Below are positions 2,163-21,893 of a stretch of 21,893 bases of DNA, in pieces (within the stretch, counting starts at the first letter, position 1; every line of letters begins with the position of its first letter). The notes under the pieces were generated by a model. That model was given only the letters and a program-made list of their open reading frames with translations, made no database searches and had not been told where the DNA came from. The translations under genes were made by a program, and so were the position numbers. The stretch lies in IMG/VR virus record IMGVR_UViG_2061766007_001580. One strand, 5' to 3'. Origin of the DNA: an uncultured virus (IMG/VR IMGVR_UViG_2061766007_001580) (Duplodnaviria; Heunggongvirae; Uroviricota; Caudoviricetes).

Positions 2163-3439
2163 GACTAATCAACTTTTTCCACGCAGGCTCAATATTGTTG
2201 ATAAACTGTTGAGCCTGATCTAAATAATAATCATAATCAATATTATTCAAAATCGTTTCTATTGGCTCAAAATCGTTCACTATTGCACAGCCCTCAGATT
2301 TAGGTACAGTTGAACCATTACTAAAACGCAACGCAACAGGTGAGCTATTAACGGCCTTATAAAAGCGAACAGCCTCGTTGCTTGCGTCAGAGTTNNNNNN
2401 NNNNGTGTTTGATACAAGTATCTGCAATCATAAGAATGTAGAGCTGGCCTGTTAGCGTGATTTGGATATACGCCTGTGGGTTATACATCTTTGAGCCTGT
2501 ATTATTAAAGTTGCCTGTAGCTGAATTTAGCACCTCTTTTAAACCCATAGATAAGTCACTGTTGGTTTGTCTGACTTCTTCTCTACGTGCAAGTATCTTG
2601 TTAATTTCAGTTACAAAGTCTTTGCCAAAAATACTTTGCAGTATCGGCTCTCTGCATATCATTGACGGATAAAACGCTTTTATATCCCAATCGATTAACA
2701 CATTGTCTTCATCACTGGCTCTGTTGATGTCAGGTGAAAACCCATGCAGACCGCCAACACCTATCTTTGCTGTGATATTACCGACTTCAACCGTTTGTGG
2801 TAAACACGGATGCTTGATACTACCACCTTTAACAACAAACTCGTGAGATACAATGTCGTTAAACAACTTTTGGAATACAGGCGTATCAAAGTGTAAAAAA
2901 GACGGTGCTTGATAATAAAACTGTTTTACAGGCTTTGTATAAGCAGGGCGTAAATCAGGCATCTTCTCAATAACAGCACTAGGGCGAGTGTTGAGGAAGT
3001 TGATTTTATATTCCTTGCTCAAACACAGGATCATGTAAACCTTGTTATACAGAAAATCATTGTACATCTGTAAAATGTTCTGAGCCTGTAACGCACAATC
3101 GTTTTTGATGTTGTCTTTTACATGCACCTGTCTAACACCTGCTCTGTAACATGCAAGCTCGTAAGAAATGTTTTTAACAAGGGTAGAAAGTATCATATTG
3201 ATCGGCATTTCACCAAAACATTCTCTGCACCATACGTTGAGCTTTTTATTCCATGACAGCATGATGTTTTTGTTCGCAATAAAAGCAGATAACAATTTCT
3301 TTGACTTTTCTTCGCCTTTATTTAAAACAAAATATTCTCTGTTTTGATTAATTGCAAACAGCATAGTGTTGTCAGATGTTACGGCACAGCACCAATGCTC
3401 ACCGTGGTTAAACTCTCGTTGTAAAGAATAAATTGCCAT
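2152..3439 (-). CDS. Divergent phage family B-type DNA polymerase, interrupted by an assembly gap at 2395-2404
   Basis: GVGGLHG; motif A-like DWDIKAFYPSMI; motif B-like GLKEVLNSATG; QITLTGQL; C-terminal VRFY...VPKSEG...IDYDYYLDQA. The motif C region is probably lost in or at the gap. Confidence 0.75.
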
Positions 3440-5906: not shown

Positions 5907-8339
5907 ATGAAACTTACAACAAACGCAAAAGATATGCTAGACGCACTTAATAAGGTTGCCCCTGCCGTGGGTAAACTGGAAGTATTAGCCTGCGTAAAAC
6001 TTTCTTTATTTTCAAATAGGCTAACACTCTGTTGTACGGATAATGAGATTTGTTTGAAAACAGCAATTACTTTAGACGGTAATAATGAAGATGGAGAAAT
6101 CTGTTTCTCTTTAAAAACTCTTGTTGATACTTTAAAGAAAGTAGATCAAGAAAAACCTGTAAACATCAAGACCATAGAAAACAACAAAGTCGTGGTTTCA
6201 AGTGGTAGGTTTAGATCTACTGTGCAGTATTTAGATGCTGACCTTTTTCCTGAAATTAACACTGTTGATAATAACGTATTAACTGCAATCTTCAAGAAGA
6301 CTGATTTGTATCAGCTTGCAGAAAACACAAAGTACAGCGTTGATGTTGGAAGTTATCGTGTATTCTTGCGTGGGGTTAATGTTCGTTTCAGCAAAGGTTT
6401 AGCCGAGTTTATTGCTAGTAACGGTCACTTGATGGCTTACTGTAAGGCAACAGTAGATAACGATGTGGAACACGATATAATTATACCAAAAAAGACTTTG
6501 GATATTATATCAAGCATGACTAAAACCGCTGAACAAGAAATTATCACCATGAATGTGAGCAGTAACAGCATATCGTTGGATATTGATGATACAACTTTAG
6601 TATCAGTGTTGGTTGANNNNNNNNNNNNNNNNNNNNNNNNNNNNNNNNNNNNNNNNNNNNNNNNNNNNNNNNNNNNNNNNNNNNNNNNNNNNNNNNNNNN
6701 NNNNNNNNNNNNNNNNNNNNNNNNNNNNNNNNNNNNNNNNNNNNNNNNNNNNNNNNNNNNNNNNNNNNNNNNNNNNNNNNNNNNNNNNNNNNNNNNNNNN
6801 NNNNNNNNNNNNNNNNNNNNNNNNNNNNNNNNNNNNNNNNNNNNNNNNNNNNNNNNNNNNNNNNNNNNNNNNNNNNNNNNNNNNNNNNNNNNNNNNNNNN
6901 NNNNNNNNNNNNNNNNNNNNNNNNNNNNNNNNNNNNNNNNNNNNNNNNNNNNNNNNNNNNNNNNNNNNNNNNNNNNNNNNNNNNNNNNNNNNNNNNNNNN
7001 NNNNNNNNNNNNNNNNNNNNNNNNNNNNNNNNNNNNNNNNNNNNNNNNNNNNNNNNNNNNNNNNNNNNNNNNNNNNNNNNNNNNNNNNNNNNNNNNNNNN
7101 NNNNNNNNNNNNNNNNNNNNNNNNNNNNNNNNNNNNNNNNNNNNNNNNNNNNNNNNNNNNNNNNNNNNNNNNNNNNNNNNNNNNNNNNNNNNNNNNNNNN
7201 NNNNNNNNNNNNNNNNNNNNNNNNNNNNNNNNNNNNNNNNNNNNNNNNNNNNNNNNNNNNNNNNNNNNNNNNNNNNNNNNNNNNNNNNNNNNNNNNNNNN
7301 NNNNNNNNNNNNNNNNNNNNNNNNNNNNNNNNNNNNNNNNNNNNNNNNNNNNNNNNNNNNNNNNNNNNNNNNNNNNNNNNNNNNNNNNNNNNNNNNNNNN
7401 NNNNNNNNNNNNNNNNNNNNNNNNAATACAAGATATAAAAATAAGCAGGTATTATGTGATACTTTTGGGATTCACAGAACTTCTTTTGATAAATACCTCG
7501 CTAAAGGTATGACCATAGATCAGGCTGTTGATAAATTGCTTGAGAGNNNNNNNNNNACAGGAAGTTATCGTGTATTCTTACGAGGTGTCAATGTTCGTTT
7601 CAGCAAAGGTTTAGCCGAGTTTATTGCTAGTAACGGTCANNNNNNNNNNTGCAAAATATCCTAATGTTGCACAAATTATCAATTTTGCACCTACAGTCTC
7701 TTTCTCTGTGTACAATGATGAATTTGTGAAAGCTATTAAGCGTGTGGCCATTACATCAAACAAGAATAGNNNNNNNNNNCGCAAAATATCCTAATGTTGC
7801 ACAAATCATCAACTTTGCACCTACAGTCTCATTCTCTGTGTACAATGATGAATTTGTGAAGGCTATTAAGCGTGTGGCCATTACATCAAACAAGAATAGT
7901 CAAGCTGTAATGTTGAATGTGAAAGACGGAGAAATCCGTTTATCAACCATGAANNNNNNNNNNTTTCTCTGTGTACAATGACGAATTTGTGAAAGCTATT
8001 AAGCGTGTGGCCATTACATCAAACAAGAATAGTCAGGCTGTAATGTTAAATGTGAAAGACGGAGAAATCCGTTTATCAACCATGAACTCTCAGCATGACG
8101 AATCGGAAGATTTTATCAGTTTGCCAACAAACACCTCTGCTGAATACTCAAGTGCGTTTAGTGCTGAATATTTATTGTATGTGCTGTCGATGTTGCACAC
8201 TGAAAAAGTTTGTTTTTTTGGCTCGTCTAGTGTAAATAATTGTAAGATTTCAGGATATGATGAAACTACTTTTAAAAGTAATATTGATCAACTTGGTGAC
8301 AATGAACCCTTGTATGTGATCTCTAGGATTGTTGTCTAG
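5907..8339 (+). CDS. dnaN: DNA polymerase III beta sliding clamp, fragmented by scaffolding (true gene about 378 aa)
   Basis: LTLCCTDNEI, DADLFPEI, ASNGHLMA, IIIPKKTL, LVD|AKYPNV, FVKAIKRVAI, AFSAEYLL and LYVISRIVV follow the beta-clamp pattern. RBS AGGAG. 5907-6616 joins in frame to 7650 or 7780 and then to 7964-8339. Confidence 0.92.
7425..7953 (+). repeat. Stack of short allelic duplicate fragments (assembly bubbles) of dnaN and of the 8409-9290 gene
   Basis: 7425-7546 matches about 8739-8857. 7557-7639 matches about 6349-6428. 7650-7769 and 7780-7953 overlap each other and 7964 onward. They differ mainly by synonymous SNPs and are separated by 10-N joins. Confidence 0.9.
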
Positions 8340-8408: not shown

Positions 8409-9290
8409 ATGTTTGATTTACCAAAACCGAAAGAAAAACAGTCAACCGATCATTTAGGTAATGTATATCCCTCTTTTAAAAAGATGTGCGAACATTACCA
8501 TTTACGACCACAGGTTGTTTATGCAAGATTATCACTTGGTTATTCACTGGAAAAGGCGTTGACTACAGACAATACTGTTACATACAAAGGGGTTACTTAT
8601 TCCTCTTTCTCTGAATTGTTTAGACGTTTTAATATAAACCCACACATAGCTAGAAATCGGTTAAATCTTGGATGGAAGTTAGAAAAAACGTTGACCACGC
8701 CTGTCAATTATCGTTCGCCTTACGTTTTTTATAAAGGCACAAGATATAAAAATAAGCAGGTGTTATGTGACACTTTTGGGATTCACAGAACTTCTTTTGA
8801 TAAATATCTCGCTAAAGGTATGACCATAGATCAGGCTGTTGATAAATTGCTTGAGAGACATCAGATTTTTGTTGGTGATCGGGTTTTTTATAATGTAGAT
8901 GAAATTGCAAGAGCCTTTAATGTAAGTGCAAGAACTGTTACTCGAACTATTAAAGCGACACAAGACAAAAATGCTAGGCTTTTACTTCTACAACAAACAC
9001 AAAATAGAAATTTTCATAACAATAGTTGTTGGATTTGTAACGGCAAAGAGATAACACGAGTTGAGGAAATAATGAAAATAACAGGCATGTCAATGACTTG
9101 GTGCAGTAGAATGTTATCTGAATACAGAGATGGAAAAACACCGATTATCATTCCAACAACCGATCATTTAGGAAACAGTTTTGCCAACTTTAAAGAAATG
9201 TGTTTGTTTCACAAAGTGAAAGCATCTTTGGCTCTGAAAACAATATTAAAAACAGGAGATGTTAAAACAGCTTTGAGCCAAAGTAAATAA
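8409..9290 (+). CDS. Tandem-repeat putative DNA-binding protein (about six NUMOD1/IENR1-like beta-hairpin-HTH modules)
   Basis: Modules TDHLGNVYPSFKKMCEHY..RLSLGYSLEKALTT, YKGVTYSSFSELFRRF..RLNLGWKLEKTLTT, YKGTRYKNKQVLCDTF.., VGDRVFYNVDEIARAF.., CNGKEITRVEEIMKIT.., TDHLGNSFANFKEMCLFH... Confidence 0.7.
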   Translation: MFDLPKPKEKQSTDHLGNVYPSFKKMCEHYHLRPQVVYARLSLGYSLEKALTTDNTVTYKGVTYSSFSELFRRFNINPHIARNRLNLGWKLEKTLTTPVNYRSPYVFYKGTRYKNKQVLCDTFGIHRTSFDKYLAKGMTIDQAVDKLLERHQIFVGDRVFYNVDEIARAFNVSARTVTRTIKATQDKNARLLLLQQTQNRNFHNNSCWICNGKEITRVEEIMKITGMSMTWCSRMLSEYRDGKTPIIIPTTDHLGNSFANFKEMCLFHKVKASLALKTILKTGDVKTALSQSK

Positions 9291-9378: not shown

Positions 9379-10442
9379 AACAGTGTTTAACTCTCTTGCT
9401 AAACTCGTCAAGTTTTCCCACGTTTACAGGTCGGCTGTTGATTTCACCTAAATAACCGCAGATTCTACGNNNNNNNNNNACTAAACTCGTCTAACTTCCC
9501 TACGTTTACAGGTCGGCTGTTGATTTCACCTAAATAACCGCAGATTCTACGGATTGCGTGTAATTTAGCAGGATCACTTGTTCCACAATTAGGACAGGTA
9601 AACTTTCCGTCCTTAAACACGCTTTCACCGTGGAAACCACATGAGCAACTATCTATCGGTGAGTTTATCGCAAAGTATGGAACTTTGTCATAAGCGTAAT
9701 CCCACAGCTTTTCTAATGCCTGCAAGTTGTGTTCAAGATTTGGTGTTTCCACATAACTGATAAAACCACCACTCGCCCACTGAGGATAAGGAGACTCGAA
9801 ATCAATCTTACTGAATGGGTCTGTCTTAACTCTTACATCAAGATGGAACGAATTAGTGTAATATTCCTTGTCGGTAACATTCTTGACAACACCAAACTCT
9901 GCCTTGTCTTTCTTTTCAAAAGTGTGAGACAAACTTTCACTAGGGGTAGAATACAGGCTATAACCTAATCCCTCGTCAGCTTTCCATTCTTTGCACTTGT
10001 CTGACATGAACTTAACTATACGTTCAGCAAATTCTTTCATCTCTGCATTGTCAATTAAGTTTTCATCACTCTTGAATACTTCATGCACAGCTTCGTTGAC
10101 ACCTACATATCCGAGTGATACGCTGGCTCTGCCGTCAGCGATATAAGGATAAATGTAATCGTCAGGCTTTAAACGTAATAACGCACCGTATTGCCAGCAG
10201 ATAGGTGCTTGCTTTGCCTGCACAGTCTTTAATCGCTTTAATCTAGTCTGTAACCCTTTGTGAGCAAGTTCGCACATCTTATCAAGTTCGTACATGTACT
10301 TGTTCTTTCTGTTTTCAAGATCTGTTTCAGTCAGACGTAAAGCAATTCTCGGCAGGTTTACACTCACGACTCCTGTGTTAAATCTTCCGTCATAAACTCT
10401 CTCGCCTTTTTCGTTTTCCCATTCACCTAAGAAACTTCTACA
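9377..10442 (-). CDS. nrdD: Anaerobic ribonucleoside-triphosphate reductase, exon 2 (3' end duplicated across the gap at 9470-9479)
   Basis: Starts CRSFLGEW. Contains GRFNTGVVSVNLPR, SLYSTPSESL, YYTNSFH, the Zn site CSCG..CPNCG and the glycyl-radical loop RRICGYL. The true end ...DEFSKRVKHC* (TAA 9377-9379) is in the allelic fragment. Confidence 0.95.
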
Positions 10443-10688
10443 CATTTTGTTCAACATAAGTCGCAACCTTATATCCGTTCTTTACGAACTGCTGTATATC
10501 GCTATACAGTTCAGACTATATCTTCACTATTTCTAGTGCCTACCATTTCGAGTGCCATTTGCTTGCACCCTACATCGCTACATTCATCACGATTAGTCGT
10601 TACACACTACCTTTCGGCTTGGTACGGTATTGTCTCAATGAGAGTTCCACCGTTTAGATAGGTTTTACATGAGCAGTTTTTAAAGTTT
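10443..10688 (-). ncRNA. Group I self-splicing intron (IA-type, with P7.1/P7.2), 246 nt, no homing endonuclease ORF
   Basis: Exon 1 ends GGU and the intron ends in G. P1 AUGGGU/GCUCAU with U.G at the splice site; P3 CCUAUC/GGUAGG; P4 ACGGUG/UACCGU; P7 GACUA/UAGUC; J8/7 AAGAUA; P8 CACUA-GAAA-UAGUG; three P9 hairpins. Removal restores PMG|CRSF. Confidence 0.96.
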
Positions 10689-11831
10689 ACCCATAGGGTT
10701 TTTAAACCCACCTGTTACCTCAACAACTTTATCATACGATAAAATATCAGGGTACATTCGCCTTGCACTACATTCGAGTGCTAATTGCTTAATATCGTAG
10801 TTAGGATCTTGTGGTTCTAAATTTAACCCACGCTTTAACGCAAATACCAACTTAGGGAAAATCGCTGTTTTACGTTCAACACCTAAACCCTTTATTCTTG
10901 TTTTTAAAATCCATTTTTGCACCATTCTAGCCCATTTGCTAGTACCTAAGCCAAAACCAAACGTACAGAATGGCGACTGACTGTGGCTATTACATGAGGT
11001 GTTGATCTGATATTCACATTGTTGGAACGCATCCTCACATTCCTTTTCAGTGCGTTTCATAGCGATACGCTCAATATCCTCAGCAGTTGCGTCATTGTAA
11101 TCTTCGGTAACTTCTTTACAGTATTTCTCATAAGTCTTTTCAACGTATGGTGCTAAAACCTCGTCAATTCTGTTAATTGTAGTACCGCCATAATTTTGAG
11201 AACTCACCGCTGTAATGACCTGCGACAATACATTTGTTGCTACTCTGATTGACTTAGGTGTGGTAATGTGAGCAGTACCCATTACAAAGCCGTTTTCAAA
11301 CATATCTTTGATATTCACAAGACAGCAGTTAATGTAACCACCAGCAGGAGAGAAACCTAGATCGTGCATGTAGATTTCGCCTTTGATATGAGCATTGGCA
11401 ATTTCTTTTGGTAGGTATTGTGTCAAAGCCCATTGTTTACTAATTTCACTAGCTATAAAATCTCTTTGAGAACAATTAGTGTTTCCGTCAATATTAGCAT
11501 TTTCATTAGCAATATTTGAATCGTGAATTTGATAAATATCGTTAATAATGTTATTTATTGAACGTGCGTTGGCTCTGTGTTCACGGTAATGAGCGTAATT
11601 GCGGAGAGTATTAACACAACCGCACTTACCGAGAGATTGTTCAACCATGTCTTGTATTTCCTCAACGGAATACACAGCAACATCTTCGTTCTTAAATGTA
11701 TTGCAAAGGCGTATAACCTGTTCGATAGCCATTTCAACAGGTTCGTCATTTACTTGTGCTTTCTTAATAGCACTCTTGATTTTCTCAGCGTCAAAGTCAA
11801 CCTTTGAGCCGTCTCTTTTAATCACTTTCAT
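10689..11831 (-). CDS. nrdD: Anaerobic ribonucleoside-triphosphate reductase, exon 1 (N-terminal ATP cone)
   Basis: MKVIKRDGSKVDFDAEKIKSAI ATP cone, NENAN, IYMHDL, INCCLV, YGGTT, TAIFPKL, RMYPD; ends KNPMG. Spliced product is about 708 aa. Confidence 0.95.
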
Positions 11832-11895: not shown

Positions 11896-11923
11896 ATCTT
11901 ACCACACTTTTACTCTTTGTCAA
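11896..11923 (-). promoter_or_regulatory. Putative nrdD promoter
   Basis: TTGACA(11923-11918)-16-TAAGAT(11901-11896), with AAAAGTGTG-G directly before the -10. Confidence 0.65.
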
Positions 11924-12182
11924 CAACAAACACCGTCAAGACCATTTCAACGTTGATACTGTTCACATCTTCATCGCAACACCTATCAAGTGTTTGAGGA
12001 ACAATATTCAGCATGTTGCACCATGTTCTAACTGTTTTGTTTTTTAAATCATCAGGAATGTCTGATACCATGCCAGTGAACACATTGTCGTCATACAAAT
12101 AGATTGCCACAATTCTTCGTTTTAACATGTTTTTGTCAAATTCTTTAAACAGCTTTTTTACTTTCATTATCATTTTTTCCAA
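11910..12182 (-). CDS. Hypothetical protein (allele A)
   Basis: 90 aa; near-identical to 12671-12943. Confidence 0.7.
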   Translation of the reverse strand: MEKMIMKVKKLFKEFDKNMLKRRIVAIYLYDDNVFTGMVSDIPDDLKNKTVRTWCNMLNIVPQTLDRCCDEDVNSINVEMVLTVFVVDKE

Positions 12183-12670
12183 AATTGTGCTAAATCATCT
12201 TTAGTATATTCNNNNNNNNNNNNNNNNNNNNNNNNNNNNNNNNNNNNNNNNNNNNNNNNNNNNNNNNNNNNNNNNNNNNNNNNNNNNNNNNNNNNNNNNN
12301 NNNNNNNNNNNGGTCGGCATTTCTTCGATTGTTATTACACCTTTTTTATTCCATACAACCTCTTTAGGATCGTATTTTATTTCATATTTAGCTTGAAACT
12401 CCTTTGCTTTCTTTAAAGTGTCAAAAACACAAATAAGTTCTTGTTTCCATTGTGTNNNNNNNNNNNNNNNNNNNNNNNNNNNNNNNNNNNNNNNNNNNNN
12501 NNNNNNNNNNNNNNNNNNNNNNNNNNNNNNNNNNNNNNNNNNNNNNNNNNNNNNNNNNNNNNCACATAACATAGTGTAGTATAATTCCTTGTTAGGTAAA
12601 TCACACTGTCTGATCATTAACATGTTTACTCCTTATAAACGTTTATAAATCTATCGCNNNNNNNNNNGTT

Positions 12671-12943
12671 TTACTCTTTGTCAACAACAAACACCGTTAA
12701 GACCATTTCAACATTGACGCTATTCACATCTTCATCACAACACTTGTTCTGTATAAGAGGGTTGACCTCTAACATGTTGCACCATGTTCTAACTGTTTTG
12801 TTTTTTAAATCATCAGGAATGTCGAACACCATGCCAGTGAACACATTGTCGTCATACAAATAAATTGCCACAATTCTTCGTTTTAACATGTTTTTATCAA
12901 AATCTTTAAATAGCTTTTTCAGTTTCATTATCATTTTTTCCAA
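12671..12943 (-). CDS. Hypothetical protein (allele B)
   Basis: 90 aa; the frame is conserved between both copies. Confidence 0.7.
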   Translation of the reverse strand: MEKMIMKLKKLFKDFDKNMLKRRIVAIYLYDDNVFTGMVFDIPDDLKNKTVRTWCNMLEVNPLIQNKCCDEDVNSVNVEMVLTVFVVDKE

Positions 12944-13299
12944 AATTGTGCTAAATCATCTTTAGTATATTCAAAAAATAAAGGAAGGTGCTTTTTTGGC
13001 TCTTTTTTAAAATCATCACTTTTTATATGCTTTATAGGCTCGGTTGTTTTCTTTTTCTTTTCCAGCCACCAAAACTTTGTTTCGTCATATGTAGTTGGCA
13101 TTTCTTCGATTGTTATTACACCTTTTTTATTCCATACAACCTCTTTCTCTTTAGGATCGTATTTTATTTCATATTTAGCTTTAAACTCCTTCGCTTTCTT
13201 TAAAGTGTCAAAAACACAAATAAGTTCTTGTTTCCATTGTGTTGCGTTGTAGTAATCTACTTCCCAACAATGATACACTGCATAAACTTTATTACCCAT
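12931..13299 (-). CDS. Hypothetical Lys-rich protein
   Basis: RBS GAGGAG. A partial allele at 12312-12455 lacks one KE unit. Confidence 0.7.
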   Translation of the reverse strand: MGNKVYAVYHCWEVDYYNATQWKQELICVFDTLKKAKEFKAKYEIKYDPKEKEVVWNKKGVITIEEMPTTYDETKFWWLEKKKKTTEPIKHIKSDDFKKEPKKHLPLFFEYTKDDLAQFWKK

Positions 13300-18473: not shown

Positions 18474-18734
18474 TTATTCACCTACTAAAACTTTTGCACA
18501 AATCAAATATTCAGCAACACTCACAGCAAAGATAATTAGAATAAGGCTGGTGTACTGATAAAACAATACTGTCAACGCAACATTTTTCTTGGTATCATCA
18601 TCGACATGCTTACTGTCACCATGCTGTTTCATTAAACGTATAGCACACTTGCTCACGTCAAAAGGAAAGCTGAAAAATCTTATCACTGCAAAACCGATAA
18701 GTACACTAATTATAATAACATCAATACTAATCAT
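18474..18734 (-). CDS. Hypothetical two-TM membrane protein
   Basis: Hydrophobic stretches VIIISVLIGFAVIRFFSFPF and VALTVLF..LILIIFAVSVA. Confidence 0.6.
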   Translation of the reverse strand: MISIDVIIISVLIGFAVIRFFSFPFDVSKCAIRLMKQHGDSKHVDDDTKKNVALTVLFYQYTSLILIIFAVSVAEYLICAKVLVGE

Positions 18735-20193
18735 TACTTACTTTTTCCTGTTCTTCTTTAAATCTTGAAAATGCTGTTTTTTGCTTATTAGAACACATCG
18801 TGTAAAATATATTATGCGTGTTCAAATACTCTCTGTCTTCTTCCCACTGCTGTGCAGATGTATAACTCTTATACCAAGTTCTTCTATCTCCGTCAAACTT
18901 CATACCTAAATTTTTTGCAAAAATCTTGTTGTCGTATGAAAGTTTAATGTGAACTTCTATTGTGTTCTGTAAAGCATTGTTATAAAGCTCTTGCACTGCC
19001 TCATTATAATGTATTACAGCACCTAAAGCAAGACAATCATTCACAGCTCTGTGAGCATTGTAAAAATAACCCAGCTTGTACATTAAGGTTTCAAGGTTTT
19101 TCTTGTGGCAACCCCTTTTACCCCAATCAATTTCGGTTAAGCTATCAGCCCACGGCTTATCTGCTAATTCAGGAAAAGCCTTATCGACAAACTTACGGTC
19201 GAAACCTGCATTGTGAGCTACGATTAAATACTTGCCTTTTGGCAGATGATCNNNNNNNNNNACCATCGTATAAAATATATTATGCATGTTCAAATACTCT
19301 CTGTCTTCTTCCCAATGCTGTGCAGATGTATAACTCTTATACCAAGTTCTTCTATCTCCGTCAAANNNNNNNNNNNNNNNNNNNNNNNNNNNNNNNNNNN
19401 NNNNNNNNNNNNNNNNNNNNNNNNNNNNNNNNNNNNNNNNNNNNNNNNNNNNNNNNNNNNNNNNNNNNNNNNNNNNNNNNNNNNNNNNNNNNNNNNNNNN
19501 NNNNNNNNNNNNNNNNNNNNNNNNNNNNNNNNNNNNNNNNATAACCCTTTTTACCCCAATCAATTTCGGTTAAGCTGTCAGCCCACGGCTTATCTGCTAA
19601 TTCAGGAAAAGCCCTATCGACAAACTTACGGTCAAAACCTGCATTGTGAGCTACGATTAAATACTTGCCTTTTGGCAGATGATCCTTAAAGCTGTCATAA
19701 GTGATGTGCTTGCCTGTAACCATTTCATTTGTAATGCCTGTGATCTGTGTAATTTCATCGCTGATCGGTTTTGAGGGTTGATTAAAGCCGTCATACACAT
19801 CATCAATGCTGATAATGGTATTCCATCTTACGTTGTAGGTTACGACTACAAAAGCCAGTTCGATAATTTCATTTGTCTTGTGATCAGTGCCAGTGGTTTC
19901 GGTATCAAGCAAAACCATCTGCCTGTTATCAGAGCTACCTACAATGTGTTCATTGACAACCAACGGACTAAANNNNNNNNNNCTGTCTTGTGATCTGTGC
20001 CAGTGGTTTCGGTATCAAGTAAAACCATCTGTCTGTTATCAGAGCTACCTACAATGTGTTCATTGACAACCAACGGACTAAACTTAATATCATCACCGTT
20101 GATTGTGATAGAGTCTTCAAAAGGGTTTAAGCGTAACAGCTTAAACTTGTCAGGAGACTTTGTTATTTCTGCTATTTCTTCATTTGTAATCAT
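18727..20193 (-). CDS. DEDDh 3'-5' exonuclease (DnaQ/epsilon-like) with C-terminal DUF5710-like domain; fragmented into allelic pieces
   Basis: ExoI LLDTETTG, ExoII AHNAGFD, ExoIII AHRAVND; C-terminal YDNKIFAKNLGMKFDGDRRTWY. Start MITNEE overlaps the nrdG stop (ATGA). Confidence 0.9.
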
Positions 20194-20805
20194 ATCTGTT
20201 CTTCCTGCATTGTTTTTAAATTCCAAATCTTTTGATTATCAGAGCCACGGAAAGGTTTTACATGCCCTTCGTTTTCTTCGTACTTGCCGTCAACAAGATA
20301 ATCTACATACTGTTGCAAATCAAAGACCAGTGAAGTTGACTGTTTTTTAAGTTCTTGAAAAGTGTAACCTGTATAAACCCAAATCTTAATTTCAGGCTTA
20401 AATTCTTTTACATCTCGGCAGATCTGTAAAACTGACAGTCTGTTATACACACTTAACGGATCGCCACCGCTGATAGTTAATCTGCTGATATTAGGGTTTT
20501 CAATAGTCTTTAACAGATACCTCATAGTTTCTTCGGTAAAAGGTTCACCACCGTATCTGTTCCATGTCTTTTTATTGAAACATTCTCTACAGTGATGTTC
20601 ACAGCCTGCTACAAACAAAGTAGTACCAAAGCCTGTACCGTTNNNNNNNNNNAGTTTCTTCGGTAAAAGGTTCACCGCCATATCTGTTCCATGTCTTTTT
20701 ATTGAAACATTCTCTACAATGATGTTCACAGCCTGCTACAAACAAAGTAGTACCAAAGCCTGTACCGTTGTTACATTCTACAGGCTCAATTCCAAAATAA
20801 TTCAT
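20190..20805 (-). CDS. nrdG: Anaerobic RNR activase (radical SAM); 5' part duplicated across the gap
   Basis: NGTGFGTTLFVAGCEHHCRECFN (CxxxCxxC), LTISGGDPL, IWVYTGY, DYLVDGKY, FRGSDNQ. RBS AAGGAG. Confidence 0.95.
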
Positions 20806-21002: not shown

Positions 21003-21123
21003 AAGCCTTGTCTCTCACATAAAAGCCTAAATCATCTTCACCGTAAACATTGTGATCCCATTCAACAACGAGCATGTTGTAAAAACGTTTCATGCTCTTT
21101 AAACTCGGCTTTTGGTAGTCCAT
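21003..21123 (-). CDS. N-terminal fragment of a hypothetical protein
   Basis: RBS GAGGTGG followed by MDYQKPSLKSMKRFY...; runs into a gap. Confidence 0.45.
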
Positions 21124-21764
21124 ATCATTATAACCACCTCTTGTAGAGTCGAATAAANNNNNNNNNNATTCTTGCCCTTCTTGCTTTCCACAAAGTTCTT
21201 TTCAACAAGTTCCTTACGCAGAGCCATTTCAGTCTTCTTGNNNNNNNNNNNNNNNNNNNNNNNNNNNNNNNNNNNNNNNNNNNNNNNNNNNNNNNNNNNN
21301 NNNNNNNNNNNNNNNNNNNNNNNNNNNNNNNNNNNNNNNNNNNNNNNNNNNNNNNNNNNNNNNNNNNNNNNNNNNNNNNNNNNNNNNNNNNNNNNNNNNN
21401 NNNNNNNNNNNNNNNNNNNNNNNNNNNNNNNNNNNNNNNNNNNNNNNNNNNNNNNNNNNNNNNNNNNNNNNNNNNNNNNNNNNNNNNNNNNNNNNNNNNN
21501 NNNNNNNNNNNNNNNNNNNNNNNNNNNNNNNNNNNNNNNNNNNNNNNNNNNNNNNNNNNNNNNNNNNNNNNNNNNNNNNNNNNNNNNNNNNNNNNNNNNN
21601 NNNNNNNNNNNNNNNNNNNNNNNNNNNNNNNNNNNNNNNNNNNNNNNNNNNNNNNNNNNNNNNNNNNNNNNNNNNNNNNNNNNNNNNNNNNNNNNNNNNN
21701 NNNNNNNNNNNNNNNNNNNNNNNNNNNNNNNNNNNNNNNNNNNNNNNNNNNNNNNNNNNNNNNN

Positions 21765-21893
21765 GTTTAGGCTGACAACGAAATTCAGGCGGTTAGGCAA
21801 AGGCTTTTTACCCAAACTGTTGAATGTGTTTCTACCCATAATCACAGTATGACCAGTTGTTGTGTTTTTAAACTCTTTTAAGTCTGCTGAACA
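21765..21893 (-). CDS. folA: Dihydrofolate reductase, internal fragment
   Basis: [41 protein letters not shown] is the DHFR signature. Confidence 0.95.

Follow-up and report, generated by a model that had tools for sequence, protein, structure and literature searches.

A compact sunY-type group I intron at the radical-cysteine codon of nrdD in an uncultured bovine-gut phage

The closest described relatives of the element reported here are group I introns of the sunY type in phage nrdD, the gene of the class III ribonucleotide reductase (RNR) NrdD. In phage T4, the nrdD (sunY) intron follows the first base of codon 180. At a different place, between a Gly codon and the Cys codon that follows it (Gly/Cys; a slash marks a splice junction throughout), homologous introns are already known from phi92, from a PD06-like contig and an rV5-like phage, from the Felix O1-like phage EC6 and from Vibrio phage 355E48.1. 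Our literature search, which included PMC3653736, PMC3606486, PMC7344957, PMC2988022 and PMC4837284, found no paper describing this Gly/Cys site; the phi92 genome paper (PMC3457257) may describe the intron. Here we describe an intron at the Gly/Cys junction in IMGVR_UViG_2061766007_001580, an IMG/VR record of an uncultured Caudoviricetes virus. The window, meaning the whole stretch of DNA that was analysed, is 21,893 nt long. On the evidence of structure, related alleles and RNA libraries, the element is a real group I intron of an IA2-like subgroup in phage nrdD, well formed and probably active, and it is an ordinary new member of the known sunY-type IA2 phage intron family.

On the minus strand of the window, the first nrdD exon ends ..AAC CCT ATG GGT (to 10689) and the second starts TGT AGA AGT TTC (from 10442). 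Between them lie the 246 nt of the intron (10688..10443), which begin with AAACTTTAA and end with ...CAAAATG, the last base being G. Across both junctions the strand reads ..GGT / AAACTTTAAAAACTGCTCATG ... GAACAAAATG / TGT AGA AGT TTC. The upstream open reading frame (ORF; 10680..11831, minus strand) runs on into the intron and terminates as ..PMGKL at an intron TAA. The two ORFs are halves of one nrdD gene, because the NRDD profile is divided between them (positions 1-250 and 264-557). Exon 1 holds the ATP-cone and the first half of the NrdD barrel, while exon 2 holds the remaining barrel, the Zn site and the glycyl-radical domain, its final codons being N-masked. A preliminary description of this DNA, made from the letters alone, had already recognized an ORF-less group I intron of 246 nt, flanked by CCT ATG GGT and TGT AGA AGT, and had pointed to a TAA three codons in as the stop of unspliced RNA; direct reading bears out both, the TAA being the third intron codon (10682-10680). 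It had also predicted that removal of the insert would restore PMGCRSFL in a protein of about 708 residues. The joining and the restored motif stand, and the length is corrected to 706 residues, the last 4 of them N-masked, when the exons are joined in a script (for numbering only), which makes the Cys residue 382.

The first residue of exon 2 aligns with residue 290 of T4 NrdD (chains in PDB 1h78 and 1hk8). In T4 NrdD the motif SPMGCRSFL starts at residue 286, which puts its Cys at 290, and the insertion lies, as had been proposed, directly 5' of the codon for the aligned Cys. We take Cys290 of T4 NrdD to be the finger-loop cysteine that starts catalysis, although the name Cys290 was not found in our literature search. 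A conserved cysteine that initiates catalysis is carried by the finger loop of all RNRs, and in class III RNR a finger-loop Met shares in a radical with the second Cys (PMC4493059). As claimed earlier, one full-length NrdD polypeptide from this gene needs splicing.

The covariance search that had been suggested as a check matched the intron to Rfam RF00028 at 60.0 bits (gathering score 50, E 3.5e-13), and this was the sole above-threshold family in the window. The alignment to the RF00028 model misplaces P1 and P2 into exon 1, up to 10750; the helices (Table 1) were therefore derived from the window sequence and its relatives. They were scored on a MAFFT alignment of 12 related introns, the scored structure being that written from the window row. 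The other rows were two rumen relatives, phi92, a PD06-like contig, an rV5-like Avunavirus phage, the Felix O1-like EC6, two Bacillus phage tape-measure introns, an Aeromonas phage terminase intron and the 5' parts of the T4 and HY03 nrdD introns. Standard pairs form in 92.2% of the 732 cells, and 40 of the 63 pairs have changed on both sides. None of 500 shuffles reached either value, and sliding the 3' partners by 1-3 columns left only 31-42% pairing. P4 is 100% paired with 4 of its 6 pairs compensatory, and P5 is 98% paired with 3 of 4 compensatory; P7 is 100% paired, with 1 of its 5 pairs compensatory and the other 4 invariant. All the helices named in the preliminary description are found at the places given there, and the 12-row covariation adds a P6 of 2 bp, one of whose two pairs is compensatory (A-U in the window where most rows have G-C).

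The lowest values in this alignment belong to P6a (50% paired), the distal part of P8 (59%) and P1 (78%). P6a and distal P8 are low because variable-length hairpins are misaligned by MAFFT, and P1 because three introns from other genes have P2 and a different guide position. P2 is absent from the window intron: the guide is separated from P3 by no more than GUAAAA, and the T4 and HY03 rows are collinear there. This absence, the wobble at the splice site (U(10689).G(10674) in P1), the terminal G and the IA-type pair of P7.1 and P7.2 had all been recognized before and are retained; in the Michel and Westhof classification, the P7.1/P7.2 hairpins are a mark of subgroup IA. The intron is IA2-like in lacking P2, in having the P7.1/P7.2 hairpins and in its P9-P9.1-P9.2 tail. 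The minimum free energy (MFE) fold of the intron alone has -59.6 kcal/mol (z -2.3; 6 of 200 shuffles were equally good) and recovers P3, P4, P5, P6a, P7.1, P7.2, P8 and P9.2. The window intron has no sense-strand ORF; its sole ORF of at least 40 aa, an antisense 41-codon GTG frame at 10536-10661 (plus strand), has no support. No further group I intron came to light elsewhere in the window: the permissive Rfam scan returned two sub-threshold matches, neither of them to an intron, and a scan of the window for the core motif returned the known copy and one chance-level match only.

Comparison with the T4 nrdD intron shows the same host gene, the same guide GCUCAUG, the same lack of P2 and the helix order P3-P4-P5-P6-P7-P7.1-P7.2-P3'-P8-P7'-P9, with 70% identity over positions 15-202 of the window intron. 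When the three T4 introns were compared by blastn, the nrdD intron was the nearest at 97 bits, the other two scoring 44 and 38 bits. The two introns differ in site, as had been thought: T4 codon 180 corresponds to window residue 274, 108 codons upstream. They differ also in size and content, that of T4 being 1033 nt long with the GIY-YIG endonuclease I-TevII after P9, while that of the window is 246 nt long and ORF-less. The endonuclease found in relatives of the window intron is of another type and lies elsewhere, being an HNH enzyme in P6.

The likeness to the phi92, PD06-like and rV5-like (Avunavirus) introns is closer with respect to site. They are inserted at the identical place (..ATG GGT / ... 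ATG / TGT AGA AGT TTC), share the first bases AAACT-TAA, the guide and the 3' domain, and are 66-70% identical to the window intron over near full length. They differ by a longer P6 region (introns of 279, 290 and 252 nt), by residing in enterobacterial myoviruses and by NrdD exons that are less than 48% identical to those of the window. The phi92 RefSeq record (NC_023693) carries a two-piece nrdD CDS noted as 'spliced variant'. EC6 (CCG ATG GGT/TAAC..AAG/TGT AGA) and Vibrio phage 355E48.1 (TAT ATG GGT/TAAG..ATG/TGC CGA) have the same Gly/Cys site, and their cores are 75-76% identical over window intron positions 88-242; the EC6 intron is 316 nt long with a short ORF remnant in P6, and the Vibrio intron is 819 nt long with an ORF. 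GenBank annotates nrdD of both phages only as split or fragment. The Gly/Cys insertion was read in L001, L003, L010, L011 and L012 as well as in the rumen relatives. With the intron as blastn query, 304 phage records match, and identity to the Gly/Cys-site family is 66-78%.

The suggestion that this may be an undescribed compact ribozyme is thus not upheld, given the homologous introns at the same junction. Nor does the word 'minimal' fit well: the 10 ORF-less copies that were measured are 246, 247, 252, 258, 260, 263, 279, 290, 300 and 316 nt long, and the window copy is the shortest by just 1 nt. Small group I introns include those of Azoarcus tRNA-Ile (about 205 nt), Anabaena tRNA-Leu (about 249 nt) and Twort orf142. 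These resemble the window intron in size and in having no ORF, but belong to other subgroups or genes. Because the full IA2 periphery is retained in the window copy, it is compact without being the smallest known, the smaller ones being of other subgroups. As a separate observation, the Bacillus phages BMBtp13 and 11143 (L095 348-605, L096 348-607) carry ORF-less tape-measure introns about 70% identical over window intron positions 19-246, with the same P6a-type hairpin and P9.1/P9.2 tail but with P2 and another guide; their records list two separate 'tape measure' CDSs.

With the exon 2 protein as query, IMG/VR and metagenome contigs yielded relatives at 75-90% identity, which form a small clade polymorphic for the intron. 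Three close relatives are uninterrupted (..MGCRSFL..), namely L006, which reads ..CCA ATG GGC TGT AGG TCG.., L017 and L022. Intron-minus alleles had been proposed as something to look for in raw reads; these three, from relatives, fix the junction at Gly/Cys. Others are interrupted at the same place: L016 by 247 nt (94% identical to the window intron), L005 and L019 by 263 nt (74%), L015 by an intron cut by the contig end, L004 and L020 by 737 nt, and L018 by 738 nt. Among 78 metagenome loci with a match starting at the Cys, 73 are continuous, mostly homologues of about 45% identity, and 5 are interrupted. When the 5' junction and guide were used as a pattern, the scan of IMG/VR gave 3 loci, two of them already known, and that of one genome per prokaryote species gave none; the pattern is narrow and the zero says little. 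Megablast of the whole gene against GenBank found no close phage, only a 113-nt intron piece in Aeromonas phage phiA047.

The rumen sister introns of 737-738 nt (L004/L020 and L018) have the same site and a near-identical ribozyme, and differ from the window intron by a 168-codon HNH_3/I-HmuI-like ORF in P6 (intron nt 81-587). In L004, this ORF matches HNH_3 (8.6e-11), with weaker NUMOD4 and I-HmuI NUMOD-like matches. Its stop codon sits within a P7 strand (..AAC GAC TAA), and the 510-nt ORF segment takes the place of the 19-nt P6a hairpin of the window. Between L004 and the window, 6 of 231 nt differ in the ribozyme parts (97% identity) and 180 of 477 nt differ in the last stretch of exon 1 (62%). 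A near-identical ribozyme next to so diverged an exon 1 shows recent transfer of the intron between diverged phages. Moreover, the exon 2 start TGTAGAAGTTTCTTA is common to the intron-bearing alleles, phi92 and the Avunavirus phage, and exon 1 always ends in GGT in intron-bearing alleles, whereas the empty ones have GGC or GGA followed by TGTAGG.. or TGCCGT... Judged from the sequences, this flank pattern is that expected from homing with co-conversion and recent transfer. The intron is, or recently was, mobile, presumably through homing by the HNH enzyme of its relatives.

L018 (about 2413-2700) and L020 (about 2407-2694) also have a second group I intron in nrdD exon 2 (RF00028, 52.9 and 52.8 bits). 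It lies at or beside the glycyl-radical motif RRICG/YLG, the junction being approximate, and both radical residues of one enzyme would thus be intron targets in this clade. The second intron is absent from the window, where the homologous place (about 9543, codons CGY) is uninterrupted.

The window stretch is present in bovine-gut metagenome runs, and six metatranscriptome runs carry small shares of it. Contigs of three RNA runs from two studies (X15, X16 and X17) and of one DNA run from another study (X3) were mapped to 9600-11831. One contig in each of the three RNA runs joins 10442 to 10689 and skips exactly 246 nt, the shorter sides of the joints being 38, 86 and 106 nt; where spliced metatranscriptome reads had been called for, these are contigs of relatives. 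The DNA run X3 lacks the exact 246-nt skip, and one of its contigs spans 10360 to 10745 through both junctions. X17 moreover contains a 251-nt contig that lies exactly on 10443-10688 without exon flanks, and X15 a contig over 10419-10667 that represents unspliced RNA or DNA. Ligated-exon and intron-only forms therefore both exist in RNA libraries. In the spliced contig of X15, the 38 nt of exon 2 adjoining the joint have 1 mismatch; over the same 38 nt, window-type intron alleles have 0-3 mismatches, the L005/L019 type 7 and the empty alleles 4, 7 and 15. This flank count, together with the intron-only contig of X17 that ends at both boundaries, favours genuine splicing. The intron is probably active and appears to be spliced out in nature.

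Several observations speak against the reading of this element as an active group I intron and have to be weighed. With regard to structure, inspection by eye of exon 2 against the bases 5' of the guide revealed no convincing P10 pairing, P1 has G.U where T4 has A-U, and P6a is merely 3 bp long. With regard to the RNA libraries, all mapped runs consist of contigs, not reads, and such libraries may contain DNA; because of this DNA and of the intron-less relatives, a 246-nt joint alone is no proof of splicing. In exon 1 these spliced contigs agree with the window to about 93-95% and so stem from relatives, not from this exact phage. The flank mismatch counts of X16 and X17 do not separate intron-bearing from intron-less alleles, and in X3 one contig joint leaves out 313 nt, with unknown letters in between, and may represent an allele with an empty site.

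Much of this would also be seen if the ribozyme were functional but the contigs with the 246-nt skip came from intron-less relatives or carried-over DNA, so that splicing in vivo had gone unobserved. Empty-site alleles do exist (L006, L017 and L022), the 5-7% divergence of the spliced contigs in exon 1 leaves room for such a source, and the X16 and X17 flanks do not discriminate. However, the X15 flank fits the window-type intron alleles and not the empty ones (4-15 mismatches), an assembly of mixed DNA alleles by 31-letter words should have left flanks on the X17 intron-only contig, and the single DNA run is without the exact skip. We regard this explanation as improbable.

Far less probable still is that the ribozyme is real by descent and has lost splicing, NrdD being made as two assembling polypeptides or the gene being dead. 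There is a precedent in the split NrdA of Aeromonas phage Aeh1, reported to be made as two assembling polypeptides (PMC3653736, PMC7344957), and the phi92 record also lists both nrdD halves as separate CDSs. Two in-frame ATGs stand just before exon 2 (ATG TTG AAC AAA ATG/TGT), with AAGG 9 nt upstream of the first. Yet this AAGG and the first ATG are buried in the P9.2 helix, and the break would sit in the finger loop, between the Gly and the radical Cys. Furthermore, all core helices are intact, with compensatory changes even relative to L016 (P3 A-U to G-C, P7.2 G-C to A-U), and the ligated-exon form occurs in all three RNA runs. Finally, the idea that the insert is an intergenic spacer between separate genes or an assembly artefact, to which only the two separate ORFs of the mechanical listing lend colour, has practically no chance of being right and is refuted by the RF00028 match and the covariation, by the two ORFs being contiguous halves of one Pfam NRDD profile, by the same arrangement on independent contigs from several collections and by the DNA contig of another study that crosses both junctions.

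If the intron follows the standard mechanism of its family, P1 would form between the exon end AUGGGU and the guide GCUCAU, U.G marking the cleavage site. A free guanosine bound at P7 would then attack after U(10689), the terminal G(10443) would replace the guanosine, and the exons would be joined to GGU-UGU, giving the predicted ligated sequence ..CCTATGGGT-TGTAGAAGT.. Such joining would restore the finger-loop P-M-G-C-R-S-F-L and the 706-residue NrdD. The TAA three codons into the intron may serve to keep ribosomes off the ribozyme. We infer that the intron is autocatalytic.

How a sunY-type intron came to colonize two nrdD sites is another matter. The T4 site (..UAUGAGU/) and the Gly/Cys site (..UAUGGGU/) are one transition apart, and the guide is GCUCAUG in both lineages; with the same guide retained, the Gly/Cys lineage tolerates G.U in P1. 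The L005 guide is GCCCAU, by which the G.U of P1 is 'repaired' to G-C. The endonucleases are unrelated and lie in different loops (GIY-YIG after P9, HNH in P6), which would fit a ribozyme that moved first and nucleases that were acquired later. These data are compatible with guide-directed, reverse-splicing-like transposition, and not only endonuclease homing, as the route between the two sites, although we consider this doubtful. If it is true, the rumen clade, with its empty, ORF-less and HNH alleles and its RNA-level evidence, would be a natural system for the full life cycle of an intron.

Table 1. Positions of the intron, its helices, the nrdD exons and nrdG in the window
Feature	Position	Strand	Basis or remark
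Group I intron, 246 nt, ORF-less (sunY-type IA2)	10443..10688	minus	RF00028, covariation, intron-less alleles, RNA contigs
P1	10669..10694	minus	exon AUGGGU (10694-10689) with guide GCUCAU (10674-10669); the 9 of 12 rows sharing the guide position pair
P3, 5' strand CCUAUC	10657..10662	minus	pairs with 10539-10544; 5 of 6 compensatory, 100% paired
P3, 3' strand GGUAGG	10539..10544	minus	12-row covariation
P4 ACGGUG/UACCGU around P5 UCUC-AUU-GAGA	10624..10653	minus	12-row covariation
P6 (2 bp, A-U/C-G) and P6a hairpin GCC-GAAA-GGU	10604..10623	minus	P6 strands 10623-10622 with 10605-10604
P7, 5' strand GACUA	10594..10598	minus	pairs with 10514-10518; crosses P3 as a pseudoknot
P7, 3' strand UAGUC	10514..10518	minus	12-row covariation
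P7.1 hairpin AUCG...CGAU	10574..10593	minus	4 of 4 pairs compensatory
P7.2 hairpin GGGUGC...GCACUC	10550..10570	minus	5 of 6 pairs compensatory, 98.5% paired
P8 hairpin CACUA-GAAA-UAGUG	10525..10538	minus	proximal 3 pairs 97% paired, 2 compensatory; distal 2 alignment-limited
P9 hairpin CUGUAUA-GCGA-UAUACAG	10492..10509	minus	5 of 7 pairs compensatory, 100% paired
P9.1 hairpin GUUC-GUAAA-GAAC	10477..10489	minus	3 of 4 pairs compensatory
P9.2 hairpin AUAAG-GUUGCGA-CUUAU	10456..10472	minus	5 of 5 pairs compensatory, 84% paired
Terminal G (omega G)	10443	minus	G in all 10 alignment rows reaching the 3' end
In-frame TAA	10680..10682	minus	third intron codon; unspliced translation ends after two intron codons
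nrdD exon 1	10689..11831	minus	381 codons, ends ..PMG; ORF list; Pfam ATP-cone 4.4e-19, NRDD 1-250 3.7e-68
nrdD exon 2	9465..10442	minus	Cys382 codon TGT first; Pfam NRDD 264-557 2e-85, Gly_radical 1.1e-22
nrdG (NrdD activase; context only)	20190..20729	minus	PHROG 626, 1.1e-50

Other parts of the window show further interrupted or unusual genes. The sliding clamp (DNA polymerase III beta-type) is split between 5907-7664 and 7971-8339 (both plus strand). The first, an ORF of 585 codons, encodes clamp domains 1-2 in residues 1-236, and its remaining 350 or so residues match nothing in Pfam or PHROG; domain 3 is encoded some 300 nt further downstream by an ORF of its own with 122 codons. The gene may be interrupted by an intron or endonuclease insertion or by an intein-like element, and the Rfam scan of the window gave no match at the locus. 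Convergent with the 3' end of nrdD is a 293-codon ORF (8409-9290, plus strand) with repeated helix-turn-helix modules (TDHLGN..F..FK.MC at both ends). Its only matches are to HTH_23 and to the DNA-binding part of the HNH-endonuclease family phrog_3377 (profile 98-159), and it resembles a free-standing relative of homing endonucleases in which no nuclease domain can be recognised. Just upstream of nrdD (11910-13299, minus strand) lies a tandemly duplicated two-gene cassette without a family match: the ORFs 11910-12182 and 12671-12943 are near-identical and 90 codons long, and 12201-12623 (partly N-masked) and 12931-13299 have long identical stretches in common. Pieces of a DNA polymerase and proofreading exonuclease are found in separate, partly overlapping ORFs (18727-19963 and 2387-3439, minus strand). 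Of these, the ORF at 19361-19963 has an RNase_T match and is overlapped in a different frame by 18727-19563, and the polymerase fragment is 15 kb away. This arrangement suggests that the polymerase is frameshifted, split or interrupted by further insertions. At the window edge, a 248-codon ORF (21099-21845, minus strand) matches DHFR with its first 29 residues only (profile 40-67) and may be another interrupted nucleotide-metabolism gene.

The understanding of how group I introns function is unchanged by this intron. What the rumen clade adds is the most compact measured copy of the family and a full set of alleles with marks of recent transfer, while the metatranscriptome contigs with the exact ligated junction provide field evidence that such introns are removed in nature. 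The practical value lies in annotation. This intron family splits nrdD at the radical-cysteine codon in many phage genomes, and most public records label the halves 'split', 'fragment' or 'hypothetical'. Because of such labels, intact anaerobic dNTP synthesis is under-called.

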